Shown here: piece after piece, positions 5,914-19,325 of the stretch
Numbering within the stretch: position 1 is the stretch's first letter
Layout: every line of letters begins with the position of its first letter
NCBI GenBank assembly: GCA_964609375.1
Contig: CAZSSA010000001.1
Coordinates: 7,694-71,693 of the forward strand
Direction: 5' to 3'
Length of the DNA: 64,000 nucleotides
From: an uncultured Verrucomicrobiota bacterium
Lineage (GTDB): Bacteria > Verrucomicrobiota > Kiritimatiellia > CAIKKV01 > CAITUY01
The notes under the pieces: model-generated
What the model was told of the DNA's origin: nothing
Databases searched by the model: none
The model's input: the letters and a program-made list of their open reading frames with translations, nothing else
Made by a program: the position numbers and the translations under genes

Positions 5914-5934
5914 ATAAAAACCAATCCTTGCGGG

Positions 5935-6996
5935 TTAACCAACCAATGTAGCCCGCCTTACAACTTCTCTCACTCGCGCCGCCCGCAACTCATCCCGCTC
6001 CTCAGGCTTCACAAACTGCCCCGCCGATTTCTGCAAGTGACCGGGCTGCGAACACAGCGTTAACCGGTTAATATCCGCCATCTCCAATCCCTCAATCATA
6101 CCAAGATCAAATCCAAGGCGCAACCCGGAGAGCAAGTCCAGTGTTTCACGCGATGTCAACACCCTCGCATGACACAAGACACCATAGGCCCTTCCAACAA
6201 AATCCCGGATCCGGCTTTCCCGCTGCTCCATCAGCCGAATTCTGGCATTTCGCTCGTGATTGGCAATTTCATTCACAATTTGAGCGAGTCGCTCAATAAT
6301 AGCCGCTTCCGATTCACCCAATGTAGTCTGGTTCGAGACCTGAAACATATTCCCCGTCGCCTCCGTCCCCTCACCCAGAAGCCCCCGAACCATCAGACCA
6401 ATCTTGCTCAACCCCTTGATAATTGGCTCGATTTCATTCGCCAATCGCAATGCCGGCACATGCAACATCACACTAGCTCGGAGCCCTGTGCCTACATTCG
6501 TCGGACATGCCGTCAAATACCCAAGCCTCGGCGAAAACGCATAATGAACTTTCTCCTCAATTTCGGAGTCCATCATGTCAATTTCTCGCCATAGTTCATT
6601 AAGTAATAATCCCGGACGCATCGCTTGTAACCGAAGATGATCCTCCTCATTCACCATGACCCCAAGAATCTCGTCCGGCCGCACCACAAGGCAACTCCCC
6701 CGCGACTTCCGGACCAGTTCCATACTGATCAAATGCCGCTCATGAAGAAAATCCTTGTCCTGCAATGGGATATCCCCCATGTCAACACCCATGGCAGAAT
6801 CAAGCGATTTCACCGTTCCAAGAACGTCCTCCATCTGACGTTGAACCCGAAGACACTCCTCCTCGCCAGCCCAACCAGGAAAGGCAATGCCATGGAGATT
6901 CCTCGCCAACCGGATACGACTGCTGATAACAATCATATTACGCCCGTCTTCAGGCAACCATGAGCCGGGTTTACTTACTAAATCATCCAGCTTCAT
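5935..6996 (-). CDS. mcsB: Protein arginine kinase McsB (ATP:guanido phosphotransferase family)
   Basis: 353 aa. SSRIRLARNL, CPTNVGTGLRASVMLHVPAL and EATGNMFQVSNQ motifs of phosphagen-kinase-like McsB. Lies immediately upstream of clpC. Confidence 0.9.
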   Translation of the reverse strand: MKLDDLVSKPGSWLPEDGRNMIVISSRIRLARNLHGIAFPGWAGEEECLRVQRQMEDVLGTVKSLDSAMGVDMGDIPLQDKDFLHERHLISMELVRKSRGSCLVVRPDEILGVMVNEEDHLRLQAMRPGLLLNELWREIDMMDSEIEEKVHYAFSPRLGYLTACPTNVGTGLRASVMLHVPALRLANEIEPIIKGLSKIGLMVRGLLGEGTEATGNMFQVSNQTTLGESEAAIIERLAQIVNEIANHERNARIRLMEQRESRIRDFVGRAYGVLCHARVLTSRETLDLLSGLRLGFDLGMIEGLEMADINRLTLCSQPGHLQKSAGQFVKPEERDELRAARVREVVRRATLVG

Positions 6997-7474
6997 GCCC
7001 CGCCTCCCGAATCAAATCCCGCACTTGCGCCGCTCGCTCATAGTCTTCACACTTGATGGCATCATCAAGGTCTCCTTGAAGCTTCACCACCCTCGACTTC
7101 ACCCCCACCACTTGACGGACAGTCCTTGGAACCTTTCCTTTGTGTGTCACGCCTTTATGCATCGCCGCCAACATCGGTTTAAGGTCTTCACCAAACGACT
7201 CATAACAACGTTCACACCCAAGACGCCCCGTTTTTTTAAAATCCGTTCCCCGAAGGTGGCAGTAAGGACAACGGCGATTCAAGAACCCAGAAGCATCATC
7301 ACCACCCGCCAGTCCAAAAAGAATCTCCGGAATGGACATGACATTCTGAACATTCAGTCCGCTTTCCTCTGCGCACTCCTCGCATAAGTGCAATTCCCTG
7401 CTATTACCGTCAATCACTTGCGATACATGAATGGAGGCTTCACTCTGATGACAGCTATCACAAAGCATACTCAC
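6983..7474 (-). CDS. mcsA: McsA-like activator of McsB (Cys4 zinc fingers plus UvrB/C-like motif)
   Basis: CDSCHQ...LCEECAEE and RCPYC...CERC cysteine pairs, and a C-terminal DYERAAQVRDLI UVR-like motif. Overlaps mcsB by 14 nt. Confidence 0.75.
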   Translation of the reverse strand: MSMLCDSCHQSEASIHVSQVIDGNSRELHLCEECAEESGLNVQNVMSIPEILFGLAGGDDASGFLNRRCPYCHLRGTDFKKTGRLGCERCYESFGEDLKPMLAAMHKGVTHKGKVPRTVRQVVGVKSRVVKLQGDLDDAIKCEDYERAAQVRDLIREAGHEAG

Positions 7475-7692
7475 ACACCCTTCTCAAAACACGCCTTGAA
7501 CACTTTTGGAAGCTGGGCAGTACAAAGTCGTACCGTACACCGCACCATCAAAACAAAGGTCCGCAGGTGAAGCATCCATAGTAGTGACGCCCCCTCCGTA
7601 AAACAACCTGATTTTAAAAACAGCTCCTTATTTATTTGAAACAGACCCTTCTCGTCGTGTTTTTTAACGAACATTATTTACAAACACACCGA

Positions 7693-7721
7693 TTGACATC
7701 CATCCGCACTTCGAGTATCCT
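7693..7721 (+). promoter_or_regulatory. Candidate sigma70-type promoter (TTGACA, 17 nt spacer, TATCCT) upstream of the 7781 gene
   Basis: Hexamers and spacer read directly. Position fits a transcription start about 50 nt before the ATG. Confidence 0.35.
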
Positions 7722-7780
7722 GAGTGTAGAGTTGAAGTGAGATGTTTTTATATCTATTTGTATTCAATGGGGTGAATAAA

Positions 7781-9208
7781 ATGAAAAAAATGATTGGAAT
7801 ATTAGCGGCTTCTGTTCTGGCTCAGCTGGCATACGCTCAGGCGACTTCTTCTGTCCCCTATCAAATCACGTTTGAGAATTACGGCGCAGGGTCTTCGATC
7901 CTGAGCAACGCCAATAATGACGGCTGGTTTGGCACCGAGGGCACGGTGGCTGTCGTGACAAACATCCAGTACACACCTGCTATGCAGTCTTATCTGACAA
8001 ACTCCGTAAGCCACTCCAATGTGCTGAAGTTCTCGGACGGAACCATTTCCAATATGTTCGATGGCAGCGGCCTGTCGGACATCGTTATAGACACAATGAT
8101 CCAGCCGGTCCGCAGCGAGGCACCCACCTCGCAGACGATGCTCGCTGTCAGTAATTCACAAGTCTCTCTCTACTTCGATACGAATGGTTACATCAATGTG
8201 TATCATGGTGTAATGACAAATGCGGATTATGGCAATCCTCCCCATTCCGCACAATGGAGCGTACTAAGCAATGGATTTGGTGCCGCTGAATCGGGAGCTT
8301 GGGTACGCGTCACCGTCAATATGAAGCATGACGGCGATTCATCAATGTCGTACTTTAAAATGAAAATAAACAATACGGAGTTCGTGAACCCTCTGGCATA
8401 TTCAGACACAGCTGGCTCATTGACACCAACGGGTTCATGGTTCCTGTGCGCCAATTACAATCAAAACAAGTTGAACCAGATCGCCATAAATGGCAGCGGC
8501 ATGCTGGATGACTTCGTCGTGGCCACTACCGAAGGAAGCTATGTAGCCGCCGCTCCTACCGTCTATGTAATGATTGCCGGCAACGGAGGCAGCGTCACTC
8601 CTCCTGGACCCGTCGTTTTCACAGCCAGCCCCGGTGAGACAAACTTTGTCATTCTCGCTTCAAACTACTACCAGATTTCCTCGGTTTATACCGGCGCTTA
8701 TCAGGGAGTTTCAAACCTTGTCGCCACAGAGGAGGGTGCTGTAAGCAATAGTTTTGTTTGGGCGAATATCACAGGAAACTCCTCTTTGTTTGTGACGTTT
8801 GCCCCTATGTTGGCTGCAAGCAACGTGCCGCTTTACTGGATGGCTGACAGGTCCCCGACCAACGGAGATTACCCAACGTGGGACAGCGTGTCCCTGAGCG
8901 ACGTGGACGGCGACGGCATGGTGACTTGGAAGGAGTATATCGCCCGAACTCATCCCGGCAACTCCAACTCCGTGCTGAGAATCTTAAGCCAGACGTTCAG
9001 CAACGGTTTGCCGCGTATCGTCTGGTCCGGCAGCACAGAACCTGATCGCCCCGCCTCCATGATTCAACTGTCGACGAATCTGGTCGACATCGACTCTTGG
9101 ACCGCCATTAGCAACAATATTCCTGCTGACGCCAGCGGGACCAATGAGTGGAAGGCCTCTGCGCCTGCTCCAACGCCAGCGTTCTACCGGGTGTCAGTCA
9201 CAAACTGA
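7781..9208 (+). CDS. Secreted hypothetical protein. Signal peptide, a beta-rich region with InlB-B-repeat-like segments, a DVDGDGM calcium-binding-like motif, and a C-terminal module shared with the 1716-aa subtilase
   Basis: Start placed at MKKMIGILAASVLAQLAYAQA (GGGGTGA Shine-Dalgarno 6 nt upstream); the track ORF starts at 7742. The C-terminus ...PAFYRVSVTN aligns with ...VRFYRITVEKP of the 51186 protein. Confidence 0.8.
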   Translation: MKKMIGILAASVLAQLAYAQATSSVPYQITFENYGAGSSILSNANNDGWFGTEGTVAVVTNIQYTPAMQSYLTNSVSHSNVLKFSDGTISNMFDGSGLSDIVIDTMIQPVRSEAPTSQTMLAVSNSQVSLYFDTNGYINVYHGVMTNADYGNPPHSAQWSVLSNGFGAAESGAWVRVTVNMKHDGDSSMSYFKMKINNTEFVNPLAYSDTAGSLTPTGSWFLCANYNQNKLNQIAINGSGMLDDFVVATTEGSYVAAAPTVYVMIAGNGGSVTPPGPVVFTASPGETNFVILASNYYQISSVYTGAYQGVSNLVATEEGAVSNSFVWANITGNSSLFVTFAPMLAASNVPLYWMADRSPTNGDYPTWDSVSLSDVDGDGMVTWKEYIARTHPGNSNSVLRILSQTFSNGLPRIVWSGSTEPDRPASMIQLSTNLVDIDSWTAISNNIPADASGTNEWKASAPAPTPAFYRVSVTN

Positions 9209-9224
9209 TCACTGGGTCATATTA

Positions 9225-9265
9225 AAAAAGAAAAACCGCCTAATAAAGGCGGTTTTTCTTTTTTA
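9225..9265. terminator. Bidirectional rho-independent terminator serving the convergent 7781..9208 and 9286..10542 genes
   Basis: AAAAAAGAAAAACCGCC-TAATAAA-GGCGGTTTTTCTTTTTT: a perfect 8-bp GC-rich stem flanked by an A-run and a T-run. Confidence 0.85.
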
Positions 9266-9285
9266 GACGGAACCCCCACTTCGGC

Positions 9286-10542
9286 TTAATGCTTAAAGCA
9301 CCGTTGCCCGGTAAACACCATGGCAACATCCGCCTCATTACACGCCTCAATAACCTCAAAGTCCCGTTCAGACCCCCCGGGCTGAATAACCGCGGTAATC
9401 CCCTCGCGGATCCCCACCTCAACTCCATCGCGAAACGGGAAAAAGGCGTCCGATACCATGCATGCCCCTGTCAGACCACCTTTGCAGTCCGCCGTGTCTT
9501 TCTCAATGGCCACCTTCTTAACCTCATCCGTCAAAGCGCCATAAGGGACCCCATGGCGTGTCCAGCATAGTCGGTCGGCAAAGTTCCGATACGCCTTGTC
9601 ACGGGCGTACTGGGCCATGCCAACACGATCCTGACCGCCTGCTCCAATGCTGATAGTCACCCCATCCTTCACATACAGGACAGAATTGCTGGTCACGCCA
9701 CATTCAACCAACCAGCCAAACATCAAATCCTCATATTCCTTTTCCGTCGGCTGCCGTCCTATTTTGTACTCCCTGCCTTTGTAAGTGGCCTCAGCCTGGG
9801 TCAACCCCGAGACTGCTCGCGTCAAGGGAACAAACGACGTTTGAACAATCATGCCCCCGTCCACCAACGACTTTATATCAAGTGTGACCGCCCCTGCAAA
9901 CGCATGGAGCTTTGCCATATTTCCAATCCGCATCACCCGCAGGTTCTTCTTTTTTGAAAAAACATCCATGACCCCATCATTAAAATCTGGAGCCACAACA
10001 ACCTCAGCATAATTTTCAACAATGAGCCTCGCCGTATCAAGATCAACAGCCCTGTTGAGCGCAATAGCACCACCAAACGCAGCAACCCGATCTGCCATGT
10101 TCGCCTTACGGTACGCTTCAGCCAGTGAATCATCCCGCGCCGCACCACAAGGATTATTGTGCTTAACAATCACAGCACAGGGTTTATCCGTCAAATACCG
10201 CATGATGTTAAGGGCATTGTCTGCATCCGTGATATTCGTCTTGCCTGGATGCTTTCCGGACTGCAGTAATTCCACGTCCGAGGCAAGATAACGGCCCGGA
10301 TGGATGCACTGCACTTCACCTAGTGTAAGGTTGCCACCCGTCAGCTTAAACAGAGCGGCTTCCTGGCCGGGATTCTCTCCATAGCGCAATCCCTTGCGTA
10401 CATTATCAATCAGCCAAGAGACTTTTTCATAGGTCAGCGTCTGCCGTCGACCGTCCTCATCGATGAAGGCTATCTCCATGCGGGGCGGAAAATGATCATC
10501 CATGATGGTCTTATATGCCGACTTGAAATCTTGTGTAGCCAT
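9286..10542 (-). CDS. purH: AICAR transformylase-domain protein (PurH C-terminal domain only; no IMP cyclohydrolase/MGS domain)
   Basis: LRYGENPGQEAALF, CAVIVKHNNPCGAA, AFGGAIALNRAVD, DGGMIVQTSF and MVSDAFFPFRDG...VIQPGGSERD match the PurH AICARFT domain. Only 418 aa. Start at MATQDF with GGGAGAA 6 nt upstream. Confidence 0.8.
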   Translation of the reverse strand: MATQDFKSAYKTIMDDHFPPRMEIAFIDEDGRRQTLTYEKVSWLIDNVRKGLRYGENPGQEAALFKLTGGNLTLGEVQCIHPGRYLASDVELLQSGKHPGKTNITDADNALNIMRYLTDKPCAVIVKHNNPCGAARDDSLAEAYRKANMADRVAAFGGAIALNRAVDLDTARLIVENYAEVVVAPDFNDGVMDVFSKKKNLRVMRIGNMAKLHAFAGAVTLDIKSLVDGGMIVQTSFVPLTRAVSGLTQAEATYKGREYKIGRQPTEKEYEDLMFGWLVECGVTSNSVLYVKDGVTISIGAGGQDRVGMAQYARDKAYRNFADRLCWTRHGVPYGALTDEVKKVAIEKDTADCKGGLTGACMVSDAFFPFRDGVEVGIREGITAVIQPGGSERDFEVIEACNEADVAMVFTGQRCFKH

Positions 10543-10652
10543 GCCGATTCTCCCGTTATAAACAACCAAACAAGGCGCCCGACAAACACTACACCAGGCG
10601 CCCCTAACACGGTCGGCACAATACCCTACTTTCTCATCAGAAACAACAACAC

Positions 10653-11537
10653 TTACAACCTGTGCGCCCGCTTTGCAGACTCAACGGTGTTGTAAAGGAG
10701 CATTGTGATCGTCATGGGACCCACTCCACCGGGAACCGGAGTGATCATTCGTGCCTTTTCCTTGCAACCCTCAAAATCCACATCACCGACAAGCCGGAAG
10801 CCCTGCTTTTTGGTGGCATCTTCAACCCTGTTAACTCCAACATCAACCACCACGGCGCCATCCCGTATCATATCCGCTGTTACGGTATTGGGCCGCCCCA
10901 CCGCCGCAATCACAATATCAGCTTGCCTGGTAAGGGAGGCAATATCCTTGGTCCGCGTATGACATACCGTAACGGTCGCATTGGCATGCTTCCCTTTTGC
11001 GATCAGCATATTCGCCAAGGGTTTACCAACAATGTTGCTGCGGCCCACAATCACCACATGCGCCCCATCAATCTGAACTCCGCTGCGGGCGAGCATCTGC
11101 ACTACACCATGCGGCGTACAAGGCAAAAACGCTTTTTCCCCAATCACCATGCGTCCCACATTCATGGGATGAAATCCATCCACATCCTTATCCGGATCAA
11201 TGGCCAGAAGCACCTCCGACTCGTCTAGATGCTTCGGCAAAGGCAACTGCACGAGAATGCCGTTAATCTTCGGATCCGCATTCATTTTTTTAACCAATGC
11301 AATCAAATCCTGCTGACGGGTAGTCGCTGGTAGACGGTTGTCATCCGAAAAAATACCAATCTCGTGACACGCTTTTTCTTTGGCAGTCACGTAAGATCTT
11401 GAGGCCGGATCCTCGCCCACCAATATAACGCCAAGACCAGGCGTCACCCCCTGTGCTTTCATGCGCTGAACTTCAATCACCAATTCATCCCGAATCGCCT
11501 TGGCGATTTCTTTCCCGTCAATCACAGCAGCCGTCAT
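10653..11537 (-). CDS. folD: Bifunctional 5,10-methylene-THF dehydrogenase / methenyl-THF cyclohydrolase
   Basis: GLGVILVGEDPASRSYV, ILVQLPLP, DVDGFHP, GRSNIVGKP and PGGVGPMTI motifs. Start at MTAAVIDGKEI with GGGAGGG Shine-Dalgarno. Confidence 0.9.
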   Translation of the reverse strand: MTAAVIDGKEIAKAIRDELVIEVQRMKAQGVTPGLGVILVGEDPASRSYVTAKEKACHEIGIFSDDNRLPATTRQQDLIALVKKMNADPKINGILVQLPLPKHLDESEVLLAIDPDKDVDGFHPMNVGRMVIGEKAFLPCTPHGVVQMLARSGVQIDGAHVVIVGRSNIVGKPLANMLIAKGKHANATVTVCHTRTKDIASLTRQADIVIAAVGRPNTVTADMIRDGAVVVDVGVNRVEDATKKQGFRLVGDVDFEGCKEKARMITPVPGGVGPMTITMLLYNTVESAKRAHRL

Positions 11538-11590
11538 GAATTCCCTCCCGCCCATATGGATTAATTACCTAACGCACGGAACATGCAGAT

Positions 11591-12385
11591 TTAATTCCAA
11601 TGCCCTTTTAACAAAGGCAACTGTGTCTTATGCCCCACCATGGCCAGGTACATACCACAGCCGGCATAGGTTGTCTGCAACGCCTTGAGATTCGCCATCG
11701 GATCGTAAGGCACATCTTCTGGGATTGTGTACCCCACACATTCGGAAAGAAGGTGAAGTTTCTTTGACATCCAGCACTCGACAAACACTGGTATTCCGTG
11801 CTTCAGAAGACCCATCACCCGCTCATCCTTTCCAAGTACCGGTTGCGTACAGATAAACTGTGCGCCCGCTTCGATCTTGCGATGAAGCTTGTCCACTTCG
11901 TGGTCCTGTGGCTCATAGGGATTAAAAGCCACTCCCAGAGTGAACACACCAGGATAGGTCTTGTGAATATAGGCCACCAGTTCAACAGCAGTCACGGCAT
12001 TACATGATAATCCAATCGCTTGAGGTTGAAGCCGGGGCAACCGCTCGTTGCCATCGCCAGAAACAACAAGAATGTCTTTCGCACCCAGTGCAGCACACGT
12101 ATCCAGAATCTTATGCAAGTCATCCTTTGTGTGAAAGGTGTTCAAGTGAACAGAAAGTTGCCCGGGTTTGACCTCCAGCCCAAGCTCAGGAATGATATCC
12201 GTCGCCTGAAAACTCAAATGCCCCATCGGATTATCCGTAATACAGGCAACATGCCCCCCCTCCATCACCTGATTAAACTTGATCGCAAACTTCTCAAGAT
12301 CACCTTCTAAATCTTCGGTGCTCTGTTTCGGGGTCACGACCTCAATGTGGTAAACTTTATTTTTAATATCGTCATGAATCGCCAT
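11591..12385 (-). CDS. metF: Methylenetetrahydrofolate reductase family protein (short, MetF-like)
   Basis: 264 aa. DNPMG, ILVVSGDG, GVAFNPYEP and AGAQFICTQPV resemble the MetF TIM-barrel. Clustered with fhs and folD. Confidence 0.65.
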   Translation of the reverse strand: MAIHDDIKNKVYHIEVVTPKQSTEDLEGDLEKFAIKFNQVMEGGHVACITDNPMGHLSFQATDIIPELGLEVKPGQLSVHLNTFHTKDDLHKILDTCAALGAKDILVVSGDGNERLPRLQPQAIGLSCNAVTAVELVAYIHKTYPGVFTLGVAFNPYEPQDHEVDKLHRKIEAGAQFICTQPVLGKDERVMGLLKHGIPVFVECWMSKKLHLLSECVGYTIPEDVPYDPMANLKALQTTYAGCGMYLAMVGHKTQLPLLKGHWN

Positions 12386-12416
12386 TGTTGATTCCTCACT
12401 ACTGTTGTTATCCGGC

Positions 12417-14193
12417 TTAGAATAAACCGCGAACTCTCCCTGTCTTTACATCAATATCGATGTTGGTAAAGGCCGGTTCTGATGCCATTCCCGGCATTAG
12501 CTTGATATCCCCCGCCACCGGCACAACAAACCCGGCACCCCTGTAAACCAAGATATCGCGAATCGGCAACGTCCACCCTTTTGGCCGTCCTTTGACATCA
12601 GGCTCGTGCGAAAGGCTCAGATGCGTTTTGACCATACAGGTCCCTAATGCCGCCGTAGCCGGCTCCGACTCAAACCGCTTCGCCTTTTCAAGCGCCACAT
12701 CGCTATACGTCACACCATCCGCCCCGTAGATCTCCTTCGCAATCCGCTCAATGCGAACACGAAGTGGCGTGTCAAGGTCATAGAGAAACTTGAAGTTGTT
12801 TTTTTCAGCCGCCGCCGCCACGACCGTCTCCGCCAATTCTCGGGCACCCTCCCCGCCTTTGAGCCAATGCTGCGAAAGTGCAGCATACGCCCCATTGGCT
12901 TCGGCAACTTTACGAACTAAAGCCACTTCATTGGGCGTGTCAGTATGAAACCCATTGATGCACACCACTGGCCGCACGCCGCTCTTCTTGACAATCTCGA
13001 TATGCGCCGCAAGATTCTCACATCCCTTCTCAAGAAGACCGAGATTCTCGCGCGTGTAAGCTTCATCAAGCTTTGCCCCGGGCTTCACCGCTGGACCGCC
13101 ACCATGCATCTTGAGGGCCCGAATCGTGGCTACAATAACAACGGCACTCGGCTTGAGTCCCGAAACGCGGCACTTCAAGTTCCAGAATTTCTCAAACCCA
13201 ATGTCAGCGGCAAAACCACTCTCAGTAACATGGTACTCCGCTAGACGCGTGCCAATTTCATCGGCAATGATGGAACTCTGACCAATGGCGATATTGGCAA
13301 ACGGTCCGGCATGCACGAAGATCGGCTGCCCTTCGATCGTCTGGAGCAAATTCGGATTGATCGCATCCACGAGCCACGCCGCCATGGCGCCATCTACCTT
13401 TAGATCCGCTGTGGTAATTTCGTTCCCCTCCTTGTCGGAAGCGACGACCATCTTCGCCAAGCGCTCCCTTAAATCGCGCAGATCCTTGGCCACGGCGAGA
13501 ATTGCCATCACCTCGCTGCCAACCGAAATCTGGAACCCAGACTCCATCTCAAAACCATCCATCTTTCCGCCGCGACCGATGATGATGTTTCGCAGACTCT
13601 GGGCGCACAAATCAATACACCACTTGATCGCCACTCGCTTGGGATCAACATTAAGTCGCCGAATCCCCGTTCGAGCCAGCCGGGCATCATCGTAGTTGCG
13701 CTCATGCTGCATCCTTGACGTCAATGCAACCATGGCTAAGTTATGGGCATTAGTAATGGAGTCAATATCCCCCGTCAGGCGAATCGAAAAGGGAGCCAGA
13801 GGAATGCATTGCGCCAGCCCACCCCCGGCAGCAGACCCCTTAATATTAAATGTTGGCCCACCGCTCGGCTGGCGGATGGCTCCGATAACCGTTTTGCCAA
13901 TCTTCCCAAGCCCCTGAACCAACCCTATCGTGGTGGTAGTCTTTCCCTCCCCAAGGGGCGTCGGCGTAATGGCTGTAACATCAATGTACTTCCCGCACGG
14001 AAACTGATGTATACGCTCCATGACCATGCGTTGGTCCACCTTCGCCAAGTTCCGGCCCATGGGAATCACTTCATCAGGCAATAAGCCCATGTTTGAAGCC
14101 AAGACCGAAATCGGCTTCATGAAAGGCTCCGCGGCCTCCGCAATCTGCCAATCCTTCATCCGTGTCGGGTCCAGAATTACTCTATTCGTCATG
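12417..14193 (-). CDS. fhs: Formate--tetrahydrofolate ligase
   Basis: [33 protein letters not shown] and the FTHFS family signature throughout. Start at MTNRVILDP with GGAAGGA Shine-Dalgarno. Confidence 0.9.
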
Positions 14194-14246
14194 ATTCCAT
14201 CCTTCCTGCTTTCGCACTCACGATCCTCGGCTCGTAAAACCAACCG

Positions 14247-15269
14247 CTATTCGACTCCCAAACGGCCTTCCCGGTGCGCCGTAATGTATTCCACCCCGTA
14301 AAGATCTTCTCCGGTTAACAACGCCTTCGCTAATGCAAACGCCTCGGTGGTTGTATCCACCCCGGCGAGAATCTTGCTGTTCATCTGAAGCGGGTCCAGT
14401 ATCCCACTGTCAGCCCCTGCTTCCACCGCGAGCCATGTGAACACCTGATTAATGAGTTTTCTGCCCGGCATGCCAAAGGAGACATTACTCAAGCCGCCGG
14501 TGATATGAATGTCAGGACCATACTGCTTTCGAATGGCCGCCACCGCATCGATAAACCCCTTGGCATTATTTGAGTCCGTGGCCACTGGAAAAACCAATGG
14601 ATCAATGTAGACATCTCCACCACGAATCCCTGCGGCCTCCAACGCTGGCATCAACCGCGCAATATTCACCAACCGCTGTTCTGTGTCCGATGGTAGATCC
14701 TTCTCTCCTGCCGCCGAGGCAATAACCACGGCCTTAAATTCAGCCGCAACTCGAATCGAATCTTGCCGCTCTAATGACACGGAGTTAACCATTGGACGCC
14801 CACGCCCCATATCGCAGGCTTCAAGACCAGCACGCAATATCTCAGGGTTGGATGAATCGATACTTAGCGGCAATCGGCTTTTCCCTTGAACCACTTTCGC
14901 CACCCACCGAATCCCCCGGCACCGCTCCTGAATATCCGTACTAAACTCATCAACATTAATATCAAGAAACGATGCATCCGACGCCTCTTGGCGTTGCGCC
15001 AAATAGGAAAGGTAATCCGCCGCCGCCGATTTGCCATTGGCATCACCATACAATCCTTGCCACACGGCGACAGCACAATGCTTAACCTTGCCATTTTCCC
15101 AATCGGCTGTTTTAAGAAACGCATCGGGAATTGGCAAATACCGTGTATCCCCCTTCCCTCCATACACAATGGCGAACCCTCCCCCATCCGCAGGCTTGAC
15201 GAAATTTCCGCCAACTTTGTAAACACGGGTGCAATGGATATTCTCGCCAACAACAATCAGTTTTTTCAT
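14247..15269 (-). CDS. Pterin-binding domain protein (MetH folate-binding domain / MtrH/AcsE-like methyl-THF methyltransferase) with a ~60-aa insertion after the GENIH motif
   Basis: VVGENIH, LSIDSSNPE, NSVSLE, DPLVFP and GGLSNVSFGMPGR match the Pterin_bind barrel. AAGGGAG Shine-Dalgarno 8 nt upstream of the ATG. Confidence 0.75.
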   Translation of the reverse strand: MKKLIVVGENIHCTRVYKVGGNFVKPADGGGFAIVYGGKGDTRYLPIPDAFLKTADWENGKVKHCAVAVWQGLYGDANGKSAAADYLSYLAQRQEASDASFLDINVDEFSTDIQERCRGIRWVAKVVQGKSRLPLSIDSSNPEILRAGLEACDMGRGRPMVNSVSLERQDSIRVAAEFKAVVIASAAGEKDLPSDTEQRLVNIARLMPALEAAGIRGGDVYIDPLVFPVATDSNNAKGFIDAVAAIRKQYGPDIHITGGLSNVSFGMPGRKLINQVFTWLAVEAGADSGILDPLQMNSKILAGVDTTTEAFALAKALLTGEDLYGVEYITAHREGRLGVE

Positions 15270-15293
15270 GAACGAATCTCCCTTAAGCCAATA

Positions 15294-16202
15294 TTACCGA
15301 TTTTTACTCTTAACATTTTGAAGCCGCTTCAACACAGATCCAATAGCCCGTATATGTTCAGGGGTAGTGCCGCAGCAACCACCTATAATCGATGCGCCTG
15401 CTTTAACCATGGCCGGAATCCACCCCGCTGACACTTCCGGGACTTCCGGAAACACATCCATTCCGTCTATATTCTTCGGCAGTCCGGCATTCGCCTGAAC
15501 CATGATCGGCACATCAGGAACGGCAACCCGTATCTCCCTCACTATCGCCACCATCTGCTCCATTCCCTGTCCACAGTTTGCACCCACAATATGCGCACCG
15601 GCGTCCACTGCCGCTCGCGCCGCGTCAGCCGGTGTCACGCCCATCATCGTATGGTAACCTCCGTCCGCCGTGTGCTGAAAGGTGAACGTGCATAGGATCT
15701 CTAGAGAGCCTTGCTCCTTTGCCGCCTTGACAGCCAAACAAGCCTCGTCAATTGCAGACATGGTCTCTATGCATACCGCATCCGCCCCTCCAGCCGCCAG
15801 GGCATCTATCTGCTCTTGAAACGCTTCATAAATCTCTTCCTCTGTGACATCGCCCATTAGAAGCATCTTACCTGTCGGTCCCACGGACGCAATAACATGC
15901 CGGTCGACGCCAGCCGCTTCACGGGAGATTGCCGCTGCAGCCCTGTTCAATTCCACCACCCGTCCCTGCAATCCAAAATACTCCAACTTGAACCGAGTCC
16001 CTCCGAAACTGTTTGTTTCAATCATGTCGCATCCTGCTTGAACATAGCGACACGCCACGTCCAATACTTCATCACGATGCTCAACGCACCACAATTCTGG
16101 ACACTCCCCTGGCTTGAGTCCCTTCTTCTGCAAAAAAGTCCCCCATGCTCCATCAGATAAAAGTAACTCGCCGGCTCTTACTCGCTGGGCTATCGGTTTC
16201 AC
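15294..16202 (-). CDS. Homocysteine S-methyltransferase domain protein (MetH Hcy-binding domain / MmuM-like, zinc thiol methyltransferase)
   Basis: LLLSDGAWGTFL, IETNSFG and IIGGCCGTTPEHIRAI are hallmark motifs. Start set to the GTG at 16202, which has a perfect AAGGAGG 7 nt upstream; the track ORF extends to a TTG at 16256. Confidence 0.8.
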   Translation of the reverse strand: MKPIAQRVRAGELLLSDGAWGTFLQKKGLKPGECPELWCVEHRDEVLDVACRYVQAGCDMIETNSFGGTRFKLEYFGLQGRVVELNRAAAAISREAAGVDRHVIASVGPTGKMLLMGDVTEEEIYEAFQEQIDALAAGGADAVCIETMSAIDEACLAVKAAKEQGSLEILCTFTFQHTADGGYHTMMGVTPADAARAAVDAGAHIVGANCGQGMEQMVAIVREIRVAVPDVPIMVQANAGLPKNIDGMDVFPEVPEVSAGWIPAMVKAGASIIGGCCGTTPEHIRAIGSVLKRLQNVKSKNR

Positions 16203-16260
16203 ACGCCATCCTCCTTCACCGAATAAATATGGACATTCTGCCTGTTTATATTCCAAAATA

Positions 16261-16288
16261 TTGTACTTTGTCGCATTTTTTTTGTACT
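16261..16288. promoter_or_regulatory. Direct repeat TTGTACT-N14-TTGTACT (21-bp register) in the divergent region between the C1 operon and the AraC/PocR regulator; candidate operator
   Basis: Repeat read from the sequence. AraC-family proteins commonly bind direct repeats spaced about two helical turns apart. Confidence 0.3.
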
Positions 16289-16298
16289 GTTAAGCAAA

Positions 16299-17690
16299 GT
16301 GAAATCCGCCTCTCAAAACAATAAGATTTCAGCTGTTCTTGATAATATCGGCAGAACCTCCGGACAAGGCGCTGTTTATCACGGGCTACATGATCAGACA
16401 ATGTTGCTCAACAACAGAGTCTGCTCCTTTTGCGTCCATGCCCTCAACCACGCGGTGTCAGCCCCCCTATGCCGTTACTCATGCTGCAATGCCACCGTTC
16501 ACGCCATGGCTTCTGGTGAACCCTATTTCTACCAATGCTGGGCAGGCCTCCTGTTTATAACGATCCCAGTTGCCCCCCAAAACCACTGTTCAGGGGGCAT
16601 AACCATGGGTGGATTTCACACCCCTGAGCAACATCAGGATATTCGCGATACAATCGAACAAGCACTTAAAACATGGCCGACAATTGATGCAAACCCTTTC
16701 CTTGCCAAACTGACCTCGCTCCATTCAATATCCACAAGCGCCCTGAGGGGCCTCGGTCACTTAGCCATGGAATCAACTTTTTCAAGTGGCTTAAACTCCA
16801 GCGGCTTCTTCCTCGCTCAAAATGAGAAGTACAACCAACAACGTCGCATCGCTGAAGCATTTGAAGACCTTCGCACACAGAATGTTTCCACATCGGACCT
16901 GTTGAGTGATGCCTACCAATTAGTCACCTTCCTGAGCCGCAATGATCGAACCAATGCCATGGAATTCGTTTCTCGCTATCTCGCCAAATTACTCATGGCC
17001 AGCAACTGGGATCTTATAAAATTGAAAGCCCACGTCCGGATATTATTAGCCGTAATCACAAGCCACGACATCTTAAATGGTATTCCTTGGGCGGTAGCCA
17101 CCAGTCGCGAGTTGCGACATATGGCAAGACTTGAACAGGCGTCAACCACCGAAGAAAGTTGCTATGAAGTATCTGAATGGATCCTTCAATATTTCCGAAA
17201 ACCTGAGCGCATTTTCATTGATGGCCGTCGTCTTGGCGATCGGATTCTGAGCTGGATGCAGGCGCATTATCAGGAAACAGTCACCCTGTCAGTCGCCTCA
17301 AAAGCAATCGGCGTGAGCACCTCAACCCTGGTCCATCGCCTACCCAGTGAAACGGGAAAAACATTCAAGCAGTTACTTCAGGAAATACGGATTACCGAGG
17401 CCAAGAAGCTTCTGGCAACCAGCGCTTTGGACATCAGCACTGTGGCAGAAAACTGCGGATTCTTTGACCAGAGTCACTTCACCCACGAGTTCAAACGAGC
17501 CATCAGCATCACGCCAGGACAATTCCGCAAGTTACTCGCTATTCCGGAAATTGCCCTGCGGACTCCTAATACCATCAGCCTTGACGAACCCTTCATCTCA
17601 ACACGCGCACTTGACAAAAAGACGTCGGGTCGGAAATCCACCTGTCGCCGTGATAAGCACCCCCGCCATTCCCGGAAAGCATCACCATAA
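16299..17690 (+). CDS. AraC-family transcriptional regulator with an N-terminal PocR-like sensor domain
   Basis: The C-terminal region has the AraC helix-turn-helix (VSTSTLVHRL...ENCGFFDQSHFTHEFKRAISITPGQFRK). The N-terminus has a Cys/His-rich PocR-like segment (FCVHALNH...CRYSCCNATVH...YFYQCWAGLL). Start uncertain: GTG at 16299 or ATG at 16401. Confidence 0.75.
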   Translation: MKSASQNNKISAVLDNIGRTSGQGAVYHGLHDQTMLLNNRVCSFCVHALNHAVSAPLCRYSCCNATVHAMASGEPYFYQCWAGLLFITIPVAPQNHCSGGITMGGFHTPEQHQDIRDTIEQALKTWPTIDANPFLAKLTSLHSISTSALRGLGHLAMESTFSSGLNSSGFFLAQNEKYNQQRRIAEAFEDLRTQNVSTSDLLSDAYQLVTFLSRNDRTNAMEFVSRYLAKLLMASNWDLIKLKAHVRILLAVITSHDILNGIPWAVATSRELRHMARLEQASTTEESCYEVSEWILQYFRKPERIFIDGRRLGDRILSWMQAHYQETVTLSVASKAIGVSTSTLVHRLPSETGKTFKQLLQEIRITEAKKLLATSALDISTVAENCGFFDQSHFTHEFKRAISITPGQFRKLLAIPEIALRTPNTISLDEPFISTRALDKKTSGRKSTCRRDKHPRHSRKASP

Positions 17691-17718
17691 AAAAACCCGC
17701 CGTCTATTACGGCGGGCT
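17689..17718 (-). terminator. Rho-independent terminator after rplQ (end of the ribosomal supercluster)
   Basis: On the minus strand: GCCCGCCG-TAATAGA-CGGCGGGTTTTTTT. It also lies directly after the regulator stop on the plus strand. Confidence 0.7.
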
Positions 17719-17745
17719 CATGCAAGCGATCGCGAAACTCCTATT

Positions 17746-18210
17746 TTACTCTACTTTCTTCTCGTCGTCACCTTTGGTGCCGTCCGGAGTTTCACCTTCC
17801 GGCTTCGTTTTCCGTCGCTTATCGACCTGGGCGAGATCAACCCACTCCAAAACCACCATTTCAGAAGCATCGCCACCTCGCTGCCCAACCCGCACAATCC
17901 GAGTATAACCACCGGGCCTGTCCTTGTACTGCGGCGCAATCATCTCGAAAAGCCGCGTCACATGCTTTCGATGCCGAAGCACTTCCAATACCTTCCGCTT
18001 GGCATTCATCAAGTCCTCTGGCTTTCCAGAAACAAGGGCTTTCTTGGCAGTAGTCACGAGCTTCTCTGCAAGCTTTCTAGACAATCTAGCCTTCTGGATT
18101 GTCGTCTGGATCCTTTGCTCCTGAATAAAATTACTAACCAGCGAACTGAGCAAAGCCTTCCGCGCTTCCGGAGACCGACCAAGTTTTACACTATTCTTCC
18201 TGTGTCGCAT
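17746..18210 (-). CDS. rplQ: 50S ribosomal protein L17
   Basis: MRHRKNSVKLGRSPEARKALL...TTIQKA is the L17 signature. Confidence 0.9.
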   Translation of the reverse strand: MRHRKNSVKLGRSPEARKALLSSLVSNFIQEQRIQTTIQKARLSRKLAEKLVTTAKKALVSGKPEDLMNAKRKVLEVLRHRKHVTRLFEMIAPQYKDRPGGYTRIVRVGQRGGDASEMVVLEWVDLAQVDKRRKTKPEGETPDGTKGDDEKKVE

Positions 18211-18308
18211 ATCTAACTCCCAACAACCACTTACTACCCCACATTAGCTCTCAGGGCAATTACTGGCTTCTTCAACCCGTTAATAACATCGCCCGACAAA
18301 AACAGCAC

Positions 18309-19325
18309 TTACTCCTTGCCCGCCTCCGGGGCACTCAACATCTTCAGAAGCTCCTCGTCAAATTTCAAGCCAAGTCCCAATCCAAGTTCAGCCAGTTTCG
18401 CTTTAATTTCATTCAGCGACTTCTTTCCAAAATTACGGTACTTAAGCATCTCCGCTTCGCTCTTCTGCGCCAATTGCCCCACTGTCGTGATATTGGCATT
18501 ATTCAGGCAATTAGCCGCGCGAACGCTGAGTTCAATTTCGTTGACACTCATGTTGAGCACTTTCACCATCTGCTCACGCTCAAGATCAACCTGTGTTTCA
18601 GTGTCCTCAAACTCCACCACATTCTTGTCGTAATCAACAAAGACATCTAAATGGTGTCGCAATACAGCCGCCGAAACAGTCATGGCATCATCGGGGGTAA
18701 TCCGCCCGTCGGTCGTAACCTCCAGAACAAGTTTGTCATAGTCCGTTCGTTGCCCTACCCGAGTATTCTCAACAATAAAATTAACGCGCTTCACAGGTGA
18801 AAATATTGAGTCAATCGGAATGCGCCCAATATCCTGATTGTCTTTCTTATTCCAATCTGCAGGACAGAATCCACGACCAGTCTTGATTTCCAAGACAACA
18901 TCCAGTAAGCCATCCGATGCTAATGTCGCGATATGCTGCTTCGGATTAAGCACTTCGACCGTACCATCTGTCTGAATATCGCCTGCGGTCACTTCTTTGG
19001 CGCCTTTTACCTTGAGCGTCAAATAACGAGTCTCCCGTGACTGCATTCGCAACAGGACCTTTTTTAGATTTAAAATAATATCGGTCACGTCCTCCACAAC
19101 CCCTGGCAATGCACAAAACTCATGAGGAGCGCCTTCGATGCGAATCGAGGCAATGGCCGCACCCTCTAAAGACGACAGCAACACTCTTCGCAGAGAGTTT
19201 CCTATTGTCCGCCCATACCCCACCTCCAACGGCTCCGCGACAAACCGTGCAAACGTCGGGGTGCAAGACGTCTCATCTTTAACTAGTCGCTTCGGCATTT
19301 CAAATTTGCTCAATCTGATTGGCAT
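18309..19325 (-). CDS. rpoA: DNA-directed RNA polymerase subunit alpha
   Basis: N-terminal dimerisation domain and C-terminal domain (ELSVRAANCLNNANITTVGQL). Start at MPIRLSKFEMP; the track ORF is longer. Confidence 0.9.
   Translation of the reverse strand: MPIRLSKFEMPKRLVKDETSCTPTFARFVAEPLEVGYGRTIGNSLRRVLLSSLEGAAIASIRIEGAPHEFCALPGVVEDVTDIILNLKKVLLRMQSRETRYLTLKVKGAKEVTAGDIQTDGTVEVLNPKQHIATLASDGLLDVVLEIKTGRGFCPADWNKKDNQDIGRIPIDSIFSPVKRVNFIVENTRVGQRTDYDKLVLEVTTDGRITPDDAMTVSAAVLRHHLDVFVDYDKNVVEFEDTETQVDLEREQMVKVLNMSVNEIELSVRAANCLNNANITTVGQLAQKSEAEMLKYRNFGKKSLNEIKAKLAELGLGLGLKFDEELLKMLSAPEAGKE

Follow-up and report, generated by a model that had tools for sequence, protein, structure and literature searches.

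The locus analysed here is probably an anabolic C1 operon from an uncultured PVC-group bacterium; it would encode two components of a cobalamin-dependent methionine synthase whose catalytic machinery is split into three. A known three-part split MetH thus appears to be packaged here with the enzymes leading from formate to methyl-THF. The two methyltransferases are linked to a corrinoid protein in relatives and the pterin-binding one resembles MeTr and MT-II, and therefore they most likely belong to a PVC-group three-part split MetH. In the proposed route, Fhs would convert formate to 10-formyl-THF, FolD would convert this to 5,10-methylene-THF, and an MTHFR-fold protein would reduce it to 5-methyl-THF. 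A 340-aa pterin-binding TIM-barrel protein would then methylate the Co(I) of a corrinoid protein (about 211 aa) whose gene lies elsewhere, and a 302-aa Zn enzyme would pass the methyl group from the resulting methyl-Co(III) protein to homocysteine, yielding methionine. Purine synthesis would be fed from this 10-formyl-THF pool as well, through an AICARFT-only PurH. The first-pass annotation had proposed these assignments and the route from formate to homocysteine, together with the AICARFT branch, and the domain evidence agrees with it. The pairing of two anabolic consumers (the homocysteine enzyme and AICARFT) with Fhs and FolD was counted in favour of flux in the anabolic direction.

We checked the open reading frames of the window (the whole 64-kb stretch of DNA analysed) and found six co-directional genes on the minus strand between 9286 and 16202, in the order first claimed and, according to Pfam and NCBIfam, with the domains first claimed (Table 1). 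The first gene begins with a GTG at 16202, and an AAGGAGG Shine-Dalgarno sequence stands 7 nt before it. This gene lies directly 5' of the pterin gene with a gap of 24 nt, and the intergenic gaps among the first five genes range from 24 to 54 nt. The start of Fhs was placed at ATG 14192 by the gene caller and the longest ORF begins at TTG 14243; the length of FolD is likewise counted from an ATG start. The description of the locus as a compact six-gene operon holds for the first five genes, but the sixth is possibly uncoupled in part by a stable hairpin with a U-rich tail (z -2.82, with 0 of 200 shuffles folding equally well), which may act as a partial terminator or attenuator; across the whole region, terminator-like sites were not more frequent than expected by chance. 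Downstream of the sixth gene, the transcription unit is closed by a strong bidirectional terminator, a perfect 19-bp stem with a run of A on one side and of U on the other (-33.5 kcal/mol, z -5.24).

Table 1. Positions in the window of the operon genes, their regulator and the associated signals
Feature	Position	Strand	Details
Hcy-methyltransferase domain protein	15294-16202	-	302 aa from GTG 16202
Pterin-binding methyltransferase	14247-15269	-	340 aa; PF00809
Fhs	12417-14192 (longest ORF to 14243)	-	591 aa; PF01268
MTHFR-like protein	11591-12385	-	264 aa; PF02219
FolD	10653-11537 (longest ORF to 11555)	-	294 aa; PF00763 + PF02882
AICARFT-only PurH homologue	9286-10569	-	PF01808
Hairpin with U-rich tail, between folD and purH-like gene	10572-10604	-	terminator-like site and shuffle test
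Bidirectional intrinsic terminator	about 9225-9272	both	between operon end and convergent gene 7742-9208
Divergent control region, 96 nt	16203-16298		between first operon gene and regulator gene
PocR-sensor/AraC-HTH regulator	16299-17690	+	PF10114, PF12833/PF00165

Fhs matched its Pfam family at an E-value of 1e-225 and the NCBIfam model PRK13507 with 1023 bits (cutoff 938). FolD carries both of its domains and matches many FolD models of NCBIfam at about 1e-118, so that it is a predicted bifunctional methylene-THF dehydrogenase/methenyl-THF cyclohydrolase. The match of the 264-aa protein to PF02219 was weaker (E-value 5e-12, 46 bits) and was confined to positions 9-180 of the 287-position model, its N-terminal two thirds. 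Its family profile nonetheless hit MTHFR structures (E-value 1e-9), and its AlphaFold2 model (pLDDT 89.7) returned MTHFRs in Foldseek (TM 0.65-0.71, 17-20% identity). Residues E15, D111, and Q181 are invariant in the family alignment and are presumably the equivalents of E28, D120, and Q183 in the folate site of E. coli MetF, as placed by motif alignment. This protein is therefore best described as a short, divergent, MetF-like protein with a predicted MTHFR fold. It shares the TIM barrel with MTHFRs of the MetF and MetVF types, and its TDNxxG motif resembles the MetV-associated MetF proteins of two other loci (L011 and L061), but it differs from the solved MTHFRs in its small size, low identity, and lack of a MetV partner. 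The gene for this MTHFR-like protein is followed by etfB and etfA in other lineages, an arrangement for which a full-text literature search found no description. The PurH-like protein carries PF01808 at residues 57-325 and aligns only to positions 209-510 of the 510-position model for bifunctional PurH, in agreement with the earlier claim that the IMP cyclohydrolase domain is missing. A lone AICAR formyltransferase domain without the IMP cyclohydrolase (MGS-like) domain is also characteristic of the PRK07106 type; however, the protein has its own unrelated 55-aa N-terminal extension and reached only 137 bits with the PRK07106 model (cutoff 415). It is therefore assigned to another lineage, to which the C-terminal half of bifunctional PurH is nearer.

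The first gene encodes a homocysteine-binding-domain protein (PF02574, E-value 1.9e-66) with the Zn motif that had been noted in the first reading: it contains IIGGCCGTTPEHI, and its three Zn cysteines (GANCG, GGCCGT) are invariant across homologues. From its sequence, we classify it as a stand-alone, Zn-dependent, MtgE/Bmt-like methyltransferase resembling the homocysteine domain of MetH. A quite improbable alternative is that the first two genes are unrelated neighbours, in which case the Zn enzyme would act as a homocysteine methyltransferase of the BHMT/MmuM/Bmt type, independent of a cofactor and with betaine, DMSP, S-methylmethionine, or SAM as the donor, and the pterin protein would serve another corrinoid process. 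The NCBIfam scores lean in that direction, since the YitJ N-terminal (249.5 bits) and bacterial betaine-homocysteine methyltransferase (245.9 bits) models exceed MetH (147.8 bits), but all of them fall under the curated cutoffs (338, 453). Among solved structures, by contrast, the nearest is the homocysteine domain of T. maritima MetH (E-value 5.9e-43), far ahead of BHMT (6.5e-21) and the MmuM-type HMT (2.6e-10). Experimental data on the homologue from Phaeobacter inhibens point both ways. On the one hand, it methylated homocysteine in vitro directly from DMSP or betaine (bioRxiv 10.1101/2024.06.19.599700), which was counted against the split-MetH reading. On the other hand, the same gene (PGA1_c13370, Bmt) is needed for methionine prototrophy together with pterin (PGA1_c16040) and corrinoid (MtbC) proteins as a three-part MetH (PF02574, PF00809, and corrinoid proteins; PMC5764234, Price 2018).

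The second protein was described in the first-pass annotation as a MetH-derived piece. Its pterin-binding domain is indeed present (PF00809, E-value 3.9e-21; NCBIfam PRK07535, 185.6 bits), but it is nearer to stand-alone methyltransferases than to the folate domains of MetH. Its best sequence matches in the PDB are Desulfitobacterium hafniense MT-II (4o0q) and MeTr/AcsE (1f6y, 2e7f, 2yck), and its AlphaFold2 model (pLDDT 93.9) retrieved 2yck, 4o0q, and 2e7f as the top Foldseek matches, followed by MetH folate domains. With MeTr/AcsE and MT-II it shares the TIM barrel, the Asn motif SNVSF(G), and the use of a separate corrinoid partner, whereas identity is only 26-31% and the protein has an additional, conserved, family-specific N-terminal insert of about 60 residues (residues about 15-85). 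SNVSFG and DPL motifs are invariant in its family. These matches of sequence and predicted fold identify it as a putative stand-alone methyl-THF:corrinoid-protein methyltransferase (MtgD/MeTr/MT-II-like). All of its nearest relatives, MetH included, use a corrinoid protein as the donor or acceptor of the methyl group.

No B12-binding, RamA/RACo, or MetH activation domain was detected by Pfam scans of the non-ribosomal ORFs of the 64-kb window, nor any reactivation protein (RACo/RamA, DUF1638, PF02965) or cobamide gene, and tblastn of the window with corrinoid protein, RACo, and URO-D methyltransferase queries gave a best E-value of only 0.18. The earlier statement that the missing modules are not in the window was thus correct, and this absence was counted against the split-MetH reading. 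In relatives whose pterin protein is 57-83% identical, a 211-aa corrinoid-protein gene with its own AraC regulator lies directly upstream of the same genes; its product combines PF02607 (B12 cap) and PF02310 (B12-binding) with the motif GDLHDIGKN (DxHxxG). For example, in locus L013 (pterin protein 83% identical), an AraC gene (AraC2) diverges from the corrinoid-protein gene and a PocR-AraC gene diverges from a series encoding the homocysteine enzyme, pterin protein, Fhs, MetF-like protein, FolD, and PurH-like protein. Among 37 non-redundant PVC loci with a pterin protein at least 55% identical, the corrinoid protein lies within 6 kb in 14; the homocysteine enzyme does so in 14 (pterin identity 55-84%) and is absent in 23, and both are present in eight. 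Many loci contain only one of the two genes, as would be expected of unrelated neighbours, but the 14 adjoining pairs and the eight with a corrinoid protein alongside argue against that explanation. A candidate for the missing protein is P0177, which shares 86% identity with the corrinoid protein of L013; the gene upstream of it shares 50-54% with AraC2 in L013 and L014. P0177 occurs in the metagenome samples 3300059473 (on a 107-kb contig), 3300045131, and SRR35365923. Of these three samples, the first and third have a record of the window's pterin protein, and the second and third of its MTHFR-like protein. From this co-occurrence and synteny we infer that P0177 may belong to the same genome. 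Tetranucleotide composition fails to discriminate on this point, and the same sample also contains a further corrinoid protein, P0175. Of the two options raised at first, that the modules are encoded elsewhere is therefore strongly favoured by the upstream gene in close relatives and the syntenic AraC-corrinoid module in the same samples, and a reactivation system would presumably also be supplied from outside the window. The idea of a pair working without a corrinoid gained no support, and the linkage in relatives points the other way. In its specific form, the pair alone would be a cobalamin-independent methionine synthase in which pterin-bound methyl-THF directly methylates Zn-activated homocysteine. 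We regard this as highly improbable: its sole support is the absence of B12 modules from the window, whereas Co(I) corrinoid is the methyl acceptor for every characterised relative of the pterin protein, no neighbour is better conserved in relatives than the corrinoid protein, of which the same samples contain a syntenic copy, and established enzymology shows N5-methyl-THF to be a poor methyl donor that depends on either Co(I) or the active site of the unrelated MetE.

The comparison with split MetH systems made at the outset was correct, and the novelty that it implied is lower, as three-part systems have already been characterised genetically: besides that of P. inhibens (PMC5764234), MtgE/MtgD/MtgC of Ruegeria pomeroyi is needed for methionine prototrophy (PMC12478193, Mausz 2025). 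In domains and gene arrangement, the operon resembles these Roseobacter systems in having separate PF02574, PF00809, and PF02607+PF02310 proteins, a corrinoid protein encoded apart from one or both methyltransferases, no MetH activation domain, and, in R. pomeroyi, a metF paralogue adjoining the pterin gene (PMC12478193). It differs in its host (an anaerobe-type, Kiritimatiellia-like PVC MAG instead of an aerobic marine Alphaproteobacterium), in the adjacency of the homocysteine and pterin genes in one operon with fhs, folD, and the AICARFT gene, in the AraC-type regulators that flank the modules, and in that the window scan found no RamA-like or DUF1638 partner. With canonical MetH (E. coli, T. 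maritima, Thermus thermophilus) it shares the chemistry and the Zn and pterin motifs of the homocysteine and folate modules, but these are two polypeptides here, and the locus encodes neither the cobalamin domain nor the AdoMet activation domain.

The Roseobacter systems also inspire a rather unlikely alternative, in which the operon is a methyl hub, working catabolically or in both directions, comparable to MtgBCD(E) or the anaerobic O-/N-demethylases. A substrate-specific methyltransferase would load the corrinoid protein, the pterin protein would move the methyl to THF, and the MTHFR-like protein, FolD, and Fhs would oxidise it to formate with a gain of ATP, leaving the homocysteine enzyme as a mere side branch that catches some methyl as methionine. 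R. pomeroyi MtgD is bidirectional, its corrinoid protein also serves a glycine betaine methyltransferase, and the metF paralogue beside mtgD oxidises methyl-THF (PMC12478193). In addition, Fhs, FolD, and MTHFR are reversible, the best PDB match of the pterin protein (4o0q) is the methylcorrinoid:THF methyltransferase of an O-demethylase, and family members outside the PVC phyla (41-44% identity) occur in demethylase clusters with URO-D MT-I, corrinoid protein, and RACo. Since most PVC loci also have no homocysteine enzyme adjoining the pterin gene, the family is not specific to methionine synthesis. In two Kiritimatiellia loci (L018 and L019), the homocysteine-pterin pair stands beside a two-part classical MetH, which argues against simple redundancy and was counted both for a methyl hub and against a split MetH. 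However, no MT-I (URO-D, MttB/MtgB) or RACo is encoded in the window, and no RACo or MT-I within 10 kb in any PVC locus examined. Likewise, in contrast to acetogens and O-demethylases, no CODH/ACS, CFeSP, or O-demethylase MT-I is found near the operon, and the gene adjoining the pterin gene encodes a homocysteine methyltransferase. The operon moreover includes two biosynthetic consumers, one of them as its first gene, and for a fermenter the oxidation of methyl-THF is thermodynamically hard unless it has a dedicated electron acceptor; no such acceptor is encoded here.

Transcription of the anabolic operon would be under the ligand-responsive control of the PocR-AraC protein. The divergent gene said to head the operon was recovered at the expected place, with PF10114 (PocR) at residues 8-152 and the AraC HTH (PF12833/PF00165) at the C-terminus. 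RNA structure in the control region did not exceed chance in the shuffle test (z +0.38), and no Rfam riboswitch was found in 7000-19000. In L012 and L013, an orthologue of the regulator (67-68% identity) stands at the same place and is likewise divergent.

All six minus-strand open reading frames of the operon at 9286-16202 occur in the order proposed by the first-pass annotation, and profile searches confirmed the assignment of each. The upper coordinate was also correctly placed, as it equals a GTG start located 7 nt past an AAGGAGG motif. The first five genes are separated by 24-54 nt, with a gap of 24 nt between those of the homocysteine (Hcy) enzyme and the pterin protein. A stable hairpin with a U-rich tail (z -2.8) lies between folD and the purH-like gene, and therefore this sixth gene may be partly uncoupled from the other five. 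The operon ends at a bidirectional terminator with a perfect stem of 19 bp (z -5.2). Convergent with the operon and downstream of it, a 488-aa predicted secreted protein without a Pfam match is encoded at 7742-9208 (+), and its homologues hold the same place in the genomes of four relatives (loci L008 and L012-L014). At the opposite end, the divergent gene predicted to be a PocR-AraC regulator does encode a PocR sensor domain followed by an AraC helix-turn-helix (HTH) and is the putative regulator of the operon. The 96-nt region between the divergent starts does not fold above chance, and a search of 7000-19000 for SAM, cobalamin or THF riboswitches returned no Rfam match at permissive E-values, with terminator-like noise only (9200-9290); thus control by a riboswitch was rejected. 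Likewise, counts of sigma-70 promoter and terminator patterns in the operon region were not above those of shuffled sequence, so no promoter is claimed.

Genes and signals of the operon and its divergent regulator
Feature	Position	Strand	Evidence
Homocysteine S-methyltransferase domain protein	15294-16202	-	PF02574, E 1.9e-66
Pterin-binding protein	14247-15269	-	PF00809, E 3.9e-21
Formate-THF ligase (Fhs)	12417-14192	-	PF01268; NCBIfam PRK13507 above cutoff
MTHFR-like protein, 264 aa	11591-12385	-	PF02219, 46 bits, N-terminal two thirds of model
FolD	10653-11537	-	both FolD domains matched
PurH homologue, AICARFT only	9286-10569	-	positions 209-510 of 510-position bifunctional model
folD/purH-like hairpin	10572-10604		z -2.8
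Bidirectional terminator	~9225-9272		z -5.2
PocR-AraC regulator	16299-17690		PocR sensor domain, AraC HTH

The locus most probably encodes a route from formate to methionine through a split corrinoid-dependent methionine synthase. In the putative direction of flux, Fhs would convert formate to 10-formyl-THF, FolD would take this to methylene-THF, and the MTHFR-fold protein would reduce the latter to methyl-THF. The pterin protein would then transfer the methyl group of methyl-THF to a Co(I) corrinoid protein, from which the zinc enzyme would pass it on to homocysteine, while AICARFT would draw on the same 10-formyl-THF pool.

The three zinc-ligand cysteines of the Hcy enzyme (in GANCG and GGCCGT) are invariant among 12 homologues, and its nearest relatives are the Hcy domains of MetH (5.9e-43 for Thermotoga maritima, versus 6.5e-21 for BHMT and 2.6e-10 for MmuM-type enzymes). 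Against the NCBIfam Bmt model PRK07534 it scored 245.9 bits and did not reach the cutoff of 338. The closest matches of the pterin protein were an O-demethylase MT-II of Desulfitobacterium (4o0q, 3.2e-27) and MeTr/AcsE. Its AlphaFold2 model (pLDDT 93.9) retrieved 2yck, 4o0q and 2e7f first in Foldseek (probability 1.00), with MetH after them. By sequence and predicted fold, the protein is thus nearer to stand-alone methyl-THF:corrinoid methyltransferases than to the folate domains of MetH. It has the TIM barrel of MeTr/AcsE and MT-II, along with their conserved Asp residues and the catalytic Asn in the SNVSF motif. Four of these residues, N262 (the Asn of SNVSFG) and the pterin-binding D103, D138 and D223, do not vary across 44 sequences. 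It scored 185.6 bits against NCBIfam PRK07535, below the curated cutoff of 259, and represents a distinct subfamily that carries an N-terminal insert. This conserved insert of about 60 residues (approximately 15-85) consists of beta hairpins and short helices, contains the motifs GENIHCT and GK(V/I)KH, and has no counterpart in MeTr/AcsE or MetH structures. A metal site formed by its His-Cys pairs (H12-C13 and H64-C65) was discarded: beyond the Kiritimatiellia clade, A, V, M, F or I stands in place of C65, and one member has T instead of C13; since the cysteines are not conserved across phyla no metal site is claimed. It is improbable that the Hcy and pterin proteins are unrelated neighbours, the former being a Bmt/BHMT-type enzyme, as the NCBIfam scores might suggest together with a preprint report that Bmt, the Hcy component of the Phaeobacter inhibens system, can also take DMSP or betaine directly in vitro (bioRxiv 10.1101/2024.06.19.599700): the adjacency of the two genes is conserved, and the Hcy enzyme is more similar to MetH.

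Compared with canonical MetH, the Hcy domain and its zinc cysteines are present and the pterin domain is found in a separate ORF instead of the same polypeptide, but the B12 cap, B12-binding and activation domains are missing. Neither protein carries PF02607, PF02310 or PF02965, and these domains occur nowhere in the window. The claim that the window holds no B12 modules was upheld by Pfam scans of the non-ribosomal ORFs and by tblastn, in which the queries were a corrinoid protein, a URO-D methyltransferase and an activase of the RACo/RamA type (a corrinoid reactivation protein) and the best match had E = 0.18. The remainder of the window consists of the ribosomal-protein/rpoBC/secY super-operon and housekeeping genes that include trmD, ffh, clpC-mcsB-mcsA, a zinc-binding protein, purC and nrdR.

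An alignment of the pterin protein was scanned against 185,579 species genomes, and at least 581 loci encode a relative. Among the matches listed, the hosts were Kiritimatiellia, Victivallales, other Verrucomicrobiota MAGs, Spirochaetota, Planctomycetota, Dehalococcoidia and Alphaproteobacteria (the alphaproteobacterial members at 41-44% identity). The closest relatives among them (80-85%) were Kiritimatiellia/Verrucomicrobiota MAGs, so the window can be assigned to the PVC group. Open reading frames were called and clustered in 80 of these loci plus seven others, and cluster representatives were annotated with Pfam. The most telling neighbour of the pterin gene was a corrinoid protein of 211-250 aa (PF02607 and PF02310, with a GDLHDIGKN motif). 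Among the PVC loci, 37 non-redundant ones have a pterin protein with at least 55% identity. In 14 of these the corrinoid protein is encoded no more than 6 kb from the pterin gene, the same holds for the Hcy enzyme in 14, and eight have both. In L013, where the pterin protein is 83% identical, a divergent AraC gene (AraC2) and a corrinoid protein gene are followed by a divergent PocR-AraC gene and then the Hcy, pterin, Fhs, MetF-like, FolD and PurH-like genes; this locus is the operon of the window plus its missing corrinoid module. These neighbourhoods agree with the split-MetH reading, and they make it unlikely that the pair functions differently without B12, as had also been considered. A two-protein synthase that dispenses with a corrinoid, which would account for the absence of B12 modules from the window and for that only, is contradicted by every comparative line and is extremely improbable. 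For the second regulator, next to the corrinoid protein, Pfam identified nothing but an AraC HTH in two loci (L013 and L039), and a PocR match, a weak one, was obtained in L011. In this last locus (Kiritimatiellia; 8671-9990), the corrinoid gene is separated from the pterin-Fhs-FolD genes by that of an MFS transporter, which could be a carrier of formate or a C1 substrate. A search of annotated plasmids for named homologue context yielded two distant MetH-like matches only and was uninformative.

The position of the corrinoid module of L013 is occupied in the window by rplQ-rpoA, therefore a corrinoid module of this organism would be encoded elsewhere. A database search with the L013 corrinoid protein returned many proteins at 80-94% identity. 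Among them, P0177 (86% identical) is carried by a 107-kb contig in JGI/NCBI sample 3300059473 and by short contigs in two others, 3300045131 and SRR35365923. Metagenomes are the sole source of the organism of the window; its pterin protein is recorded in two of these samples (3300059473 and SRR35365923), as is its MTHFR-like protein (3300045131 and SRR35365923). Upstream of P0177 lies a divergent gene for a 409-aa AraC protein, and comparison of its N-terminal fragment with AraC2 of L013 and L014 gave 50-54% identity. The pair is the syntenic AraC2-corrinoid module, probably relocated, and this candidate partner likely belongs to the genome of the window. Tetranucleotide composition was of no use for assigning corrinoid contigs, as their correlations of 0.81-0.89 fell inside the range found within the window, and those of unrelated PVC loci did so too. 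A second corrinoid protein in sample 3300059473, P0175 (85% identical to P0177; L093 1429-4467), is flanked by a HEAT-repeat protein of 546 aa and by a HAD hydrolase, with a group II intron reverse transcriptase adjoining.

The novelty of this arrangement had been overstated. Fitness data have shown that MetH of Phaeobacter inhibens is split over three genes, one for a protein with PF02574, one for a protein with PF00809 and one for the corrinoid protein MtbC, and that DUF1638 and a RamA-like protein serve in reactivation (Price et al. 2018, PMC5764234). [quoted passage not shown] 2025, PMC12478193). Stand-alone PF02574 and PF00809 proteins, and probably the three-part logic, are shared with these Roseobacter systems, so the design was already known. 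On the other hand, the window differs in its host lineage, in the adjoining Hcy and pterin genes, in the presence of fhs, folD, MTHFR-like and AICARFT genes in the same operon, and in its AraC/PocR regulators. It also differs in reactivation, since a RACo/RamA-like (DUF4445) or DUF1638 partner was found neither in the window nor within 10 kb in the PVC loci. Recurring upstream genes in PVC loci encode SAM-methyltransferase-like and poly(A) polymerase/CCA-adding-enzyme-like proteins (judged by reading the sequences) and an MFS transporter (Pfam), none of which is a plausible reactivation protein.

The MtgBCD precedent raises the alternative of a bidirectional or catabolic methyl hub, which we consider unlikely. 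The pterin gene lacks an Hcy gene nearby in 23 of the 37 PVC loci, and its family serves other pathways: in Alphaproteobacteria, Spirochaetia and Phycisphaerae (L071, L079, L082-L085 and L087; 41-44% identity), the homologue is clustered with a 209-aa protein without a Pfam match, a URO-D methyltransferase, a corrinoid protein and a RACo/RamA-type activase, a complete corrinoid demethylase set. Moreover, two Kiritimatiellia/Verrucomicrobia MAGs (L018 574-7849 and L019 9995-17366) hold the split pair, with identities of 60-63% for the pterin protein and 49-52% for the Hcy enzyme. Two genes away lies a classical MetH in two parts, a 307-aa Hcy domain and an 818-845-aa pterin-B12-activation protein, so the pair may not be simply redundant with MetH. 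However, no PVC locus has a substrate methyltransferase or RACo nearby, and the content of the operon is anabolic. A further proposal, that the corrinoid protein and the pterin and Hcy methyltransferases of PVC anaerobes form not simply a methionine synthase but a regulated methyl-distribution hub whose direction is switched by PocR/AraC sensors, is quite unlikely. If true, methyl groups of methylated substrates (e.g., osmolytes or methylated sugars) would be directed to methionine, or to formate with a gain of ATP by way of FolD, Fhs and a new class of MTHFR that is linked to Etf or non-canonical in some other manner; this would extend the MtgBCDE logic of Roseobacters to fermentative polysaccharide degraders and link it to an uncharacterised methylene-THF reductase type. 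In Dehalococcoidia/Chloroflexi (L069-L070, L075-L077, L081 and L086), the pterin homologue (42-43% identical) follows homoserine kinase-, aspartokinase- and glycosyltransferase-like proteins (sequences read by eye), and the surrounding 10 kb contain neither a corrinoid nor an Hcy-methyltransferase gene.

As for the reductase of the preferred formate-to-methionine route, the MTHFR-like protein matched only positions 9-180 of the 287 of PF02219 (46.2 bits, gathering score 24), and its family profile reached solved MTHFRs only at E 1e-9. Its model (pLDDT 89.7) retrieved MTHFRs as all top Foldseek matches (TM 0.65-0.71, 17-20% identity), and scores against the NCBIfam NAD(P)H-dependent MetF equivalog models were 32-34 bits versus cutoffs of 294-310. 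Residues E15, D111 and Q181 are invariant in the family, and we take them to correspond to E28, D120 and Q183 of Escherichia coli MetF. Homologues with 53-62% identity are directly followed by etfB-etfA in Spirochaetota, Verrucomicrobiota and Planctomycetota and, where the identity is 62%, in a Clostridium thermosuccinogenes-type genome (in all, L043, L053, L054, L058-L060, L078 and L106 10001-12825). A class of methylene-THF reductases that depends on Etf and may be bifurcating is suggested by this order. No etf genes occur in the window, and a full-text literature search found no description of the MTHFR-like/etfB/etfA cluster. The PurH homologue, unlike bifunctional PurH, is an AICAR formyltransferase that lacks the IMP cyclohydrolase (MGS-like) domain, as first noted; residues 1-55 match nothing in Pfam or NCBIfam.

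Under automated annotation, the organism of the window would count as devoid of methionine synthase, as would many MAGs of the PVC group, Spirochaetota and Dehalococcoidia, or the split pieces would be labelled 'dihydropteroate synthase' or 'hypothetical', names seen in database records. Recognition of the three-part system would close this false auxotrophy gap and make these bacteria obligate cobamide users. The number of loci that encode a pterin-protein relative indicates that the split design is widespread outside Proteobacteria. The operon also provides a clean genetic context for two little-understood components, the divergent 264-aa MTHFR family, found elsewhere with EtfAB, and the AraC/PocR regulators of C1/corrinoid genes.

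Other features of the window were also recorded. An apparent operon at 3433-7474 (-) encodes a ClpC ATPase, a McsB-type ATP:guanido phosphotransferase and a McsA-like UVR-motif protein, a protein-arginine-kinase quality-control module best known from Firmicutes. A 1716-aa subtilase-domain protein is encoded at 51186-56336 (+) in a stretch with a GC content of 0.60-0.62 (about 0.52 in the remainder of the window) that may have been horizontally acquired. Finally, GC skew is strongly negative throughout the window (-0.15 to -0.43 per 2 kb) and nearly all genes lie on the minus strand, an unusually strong strand and coding bias.
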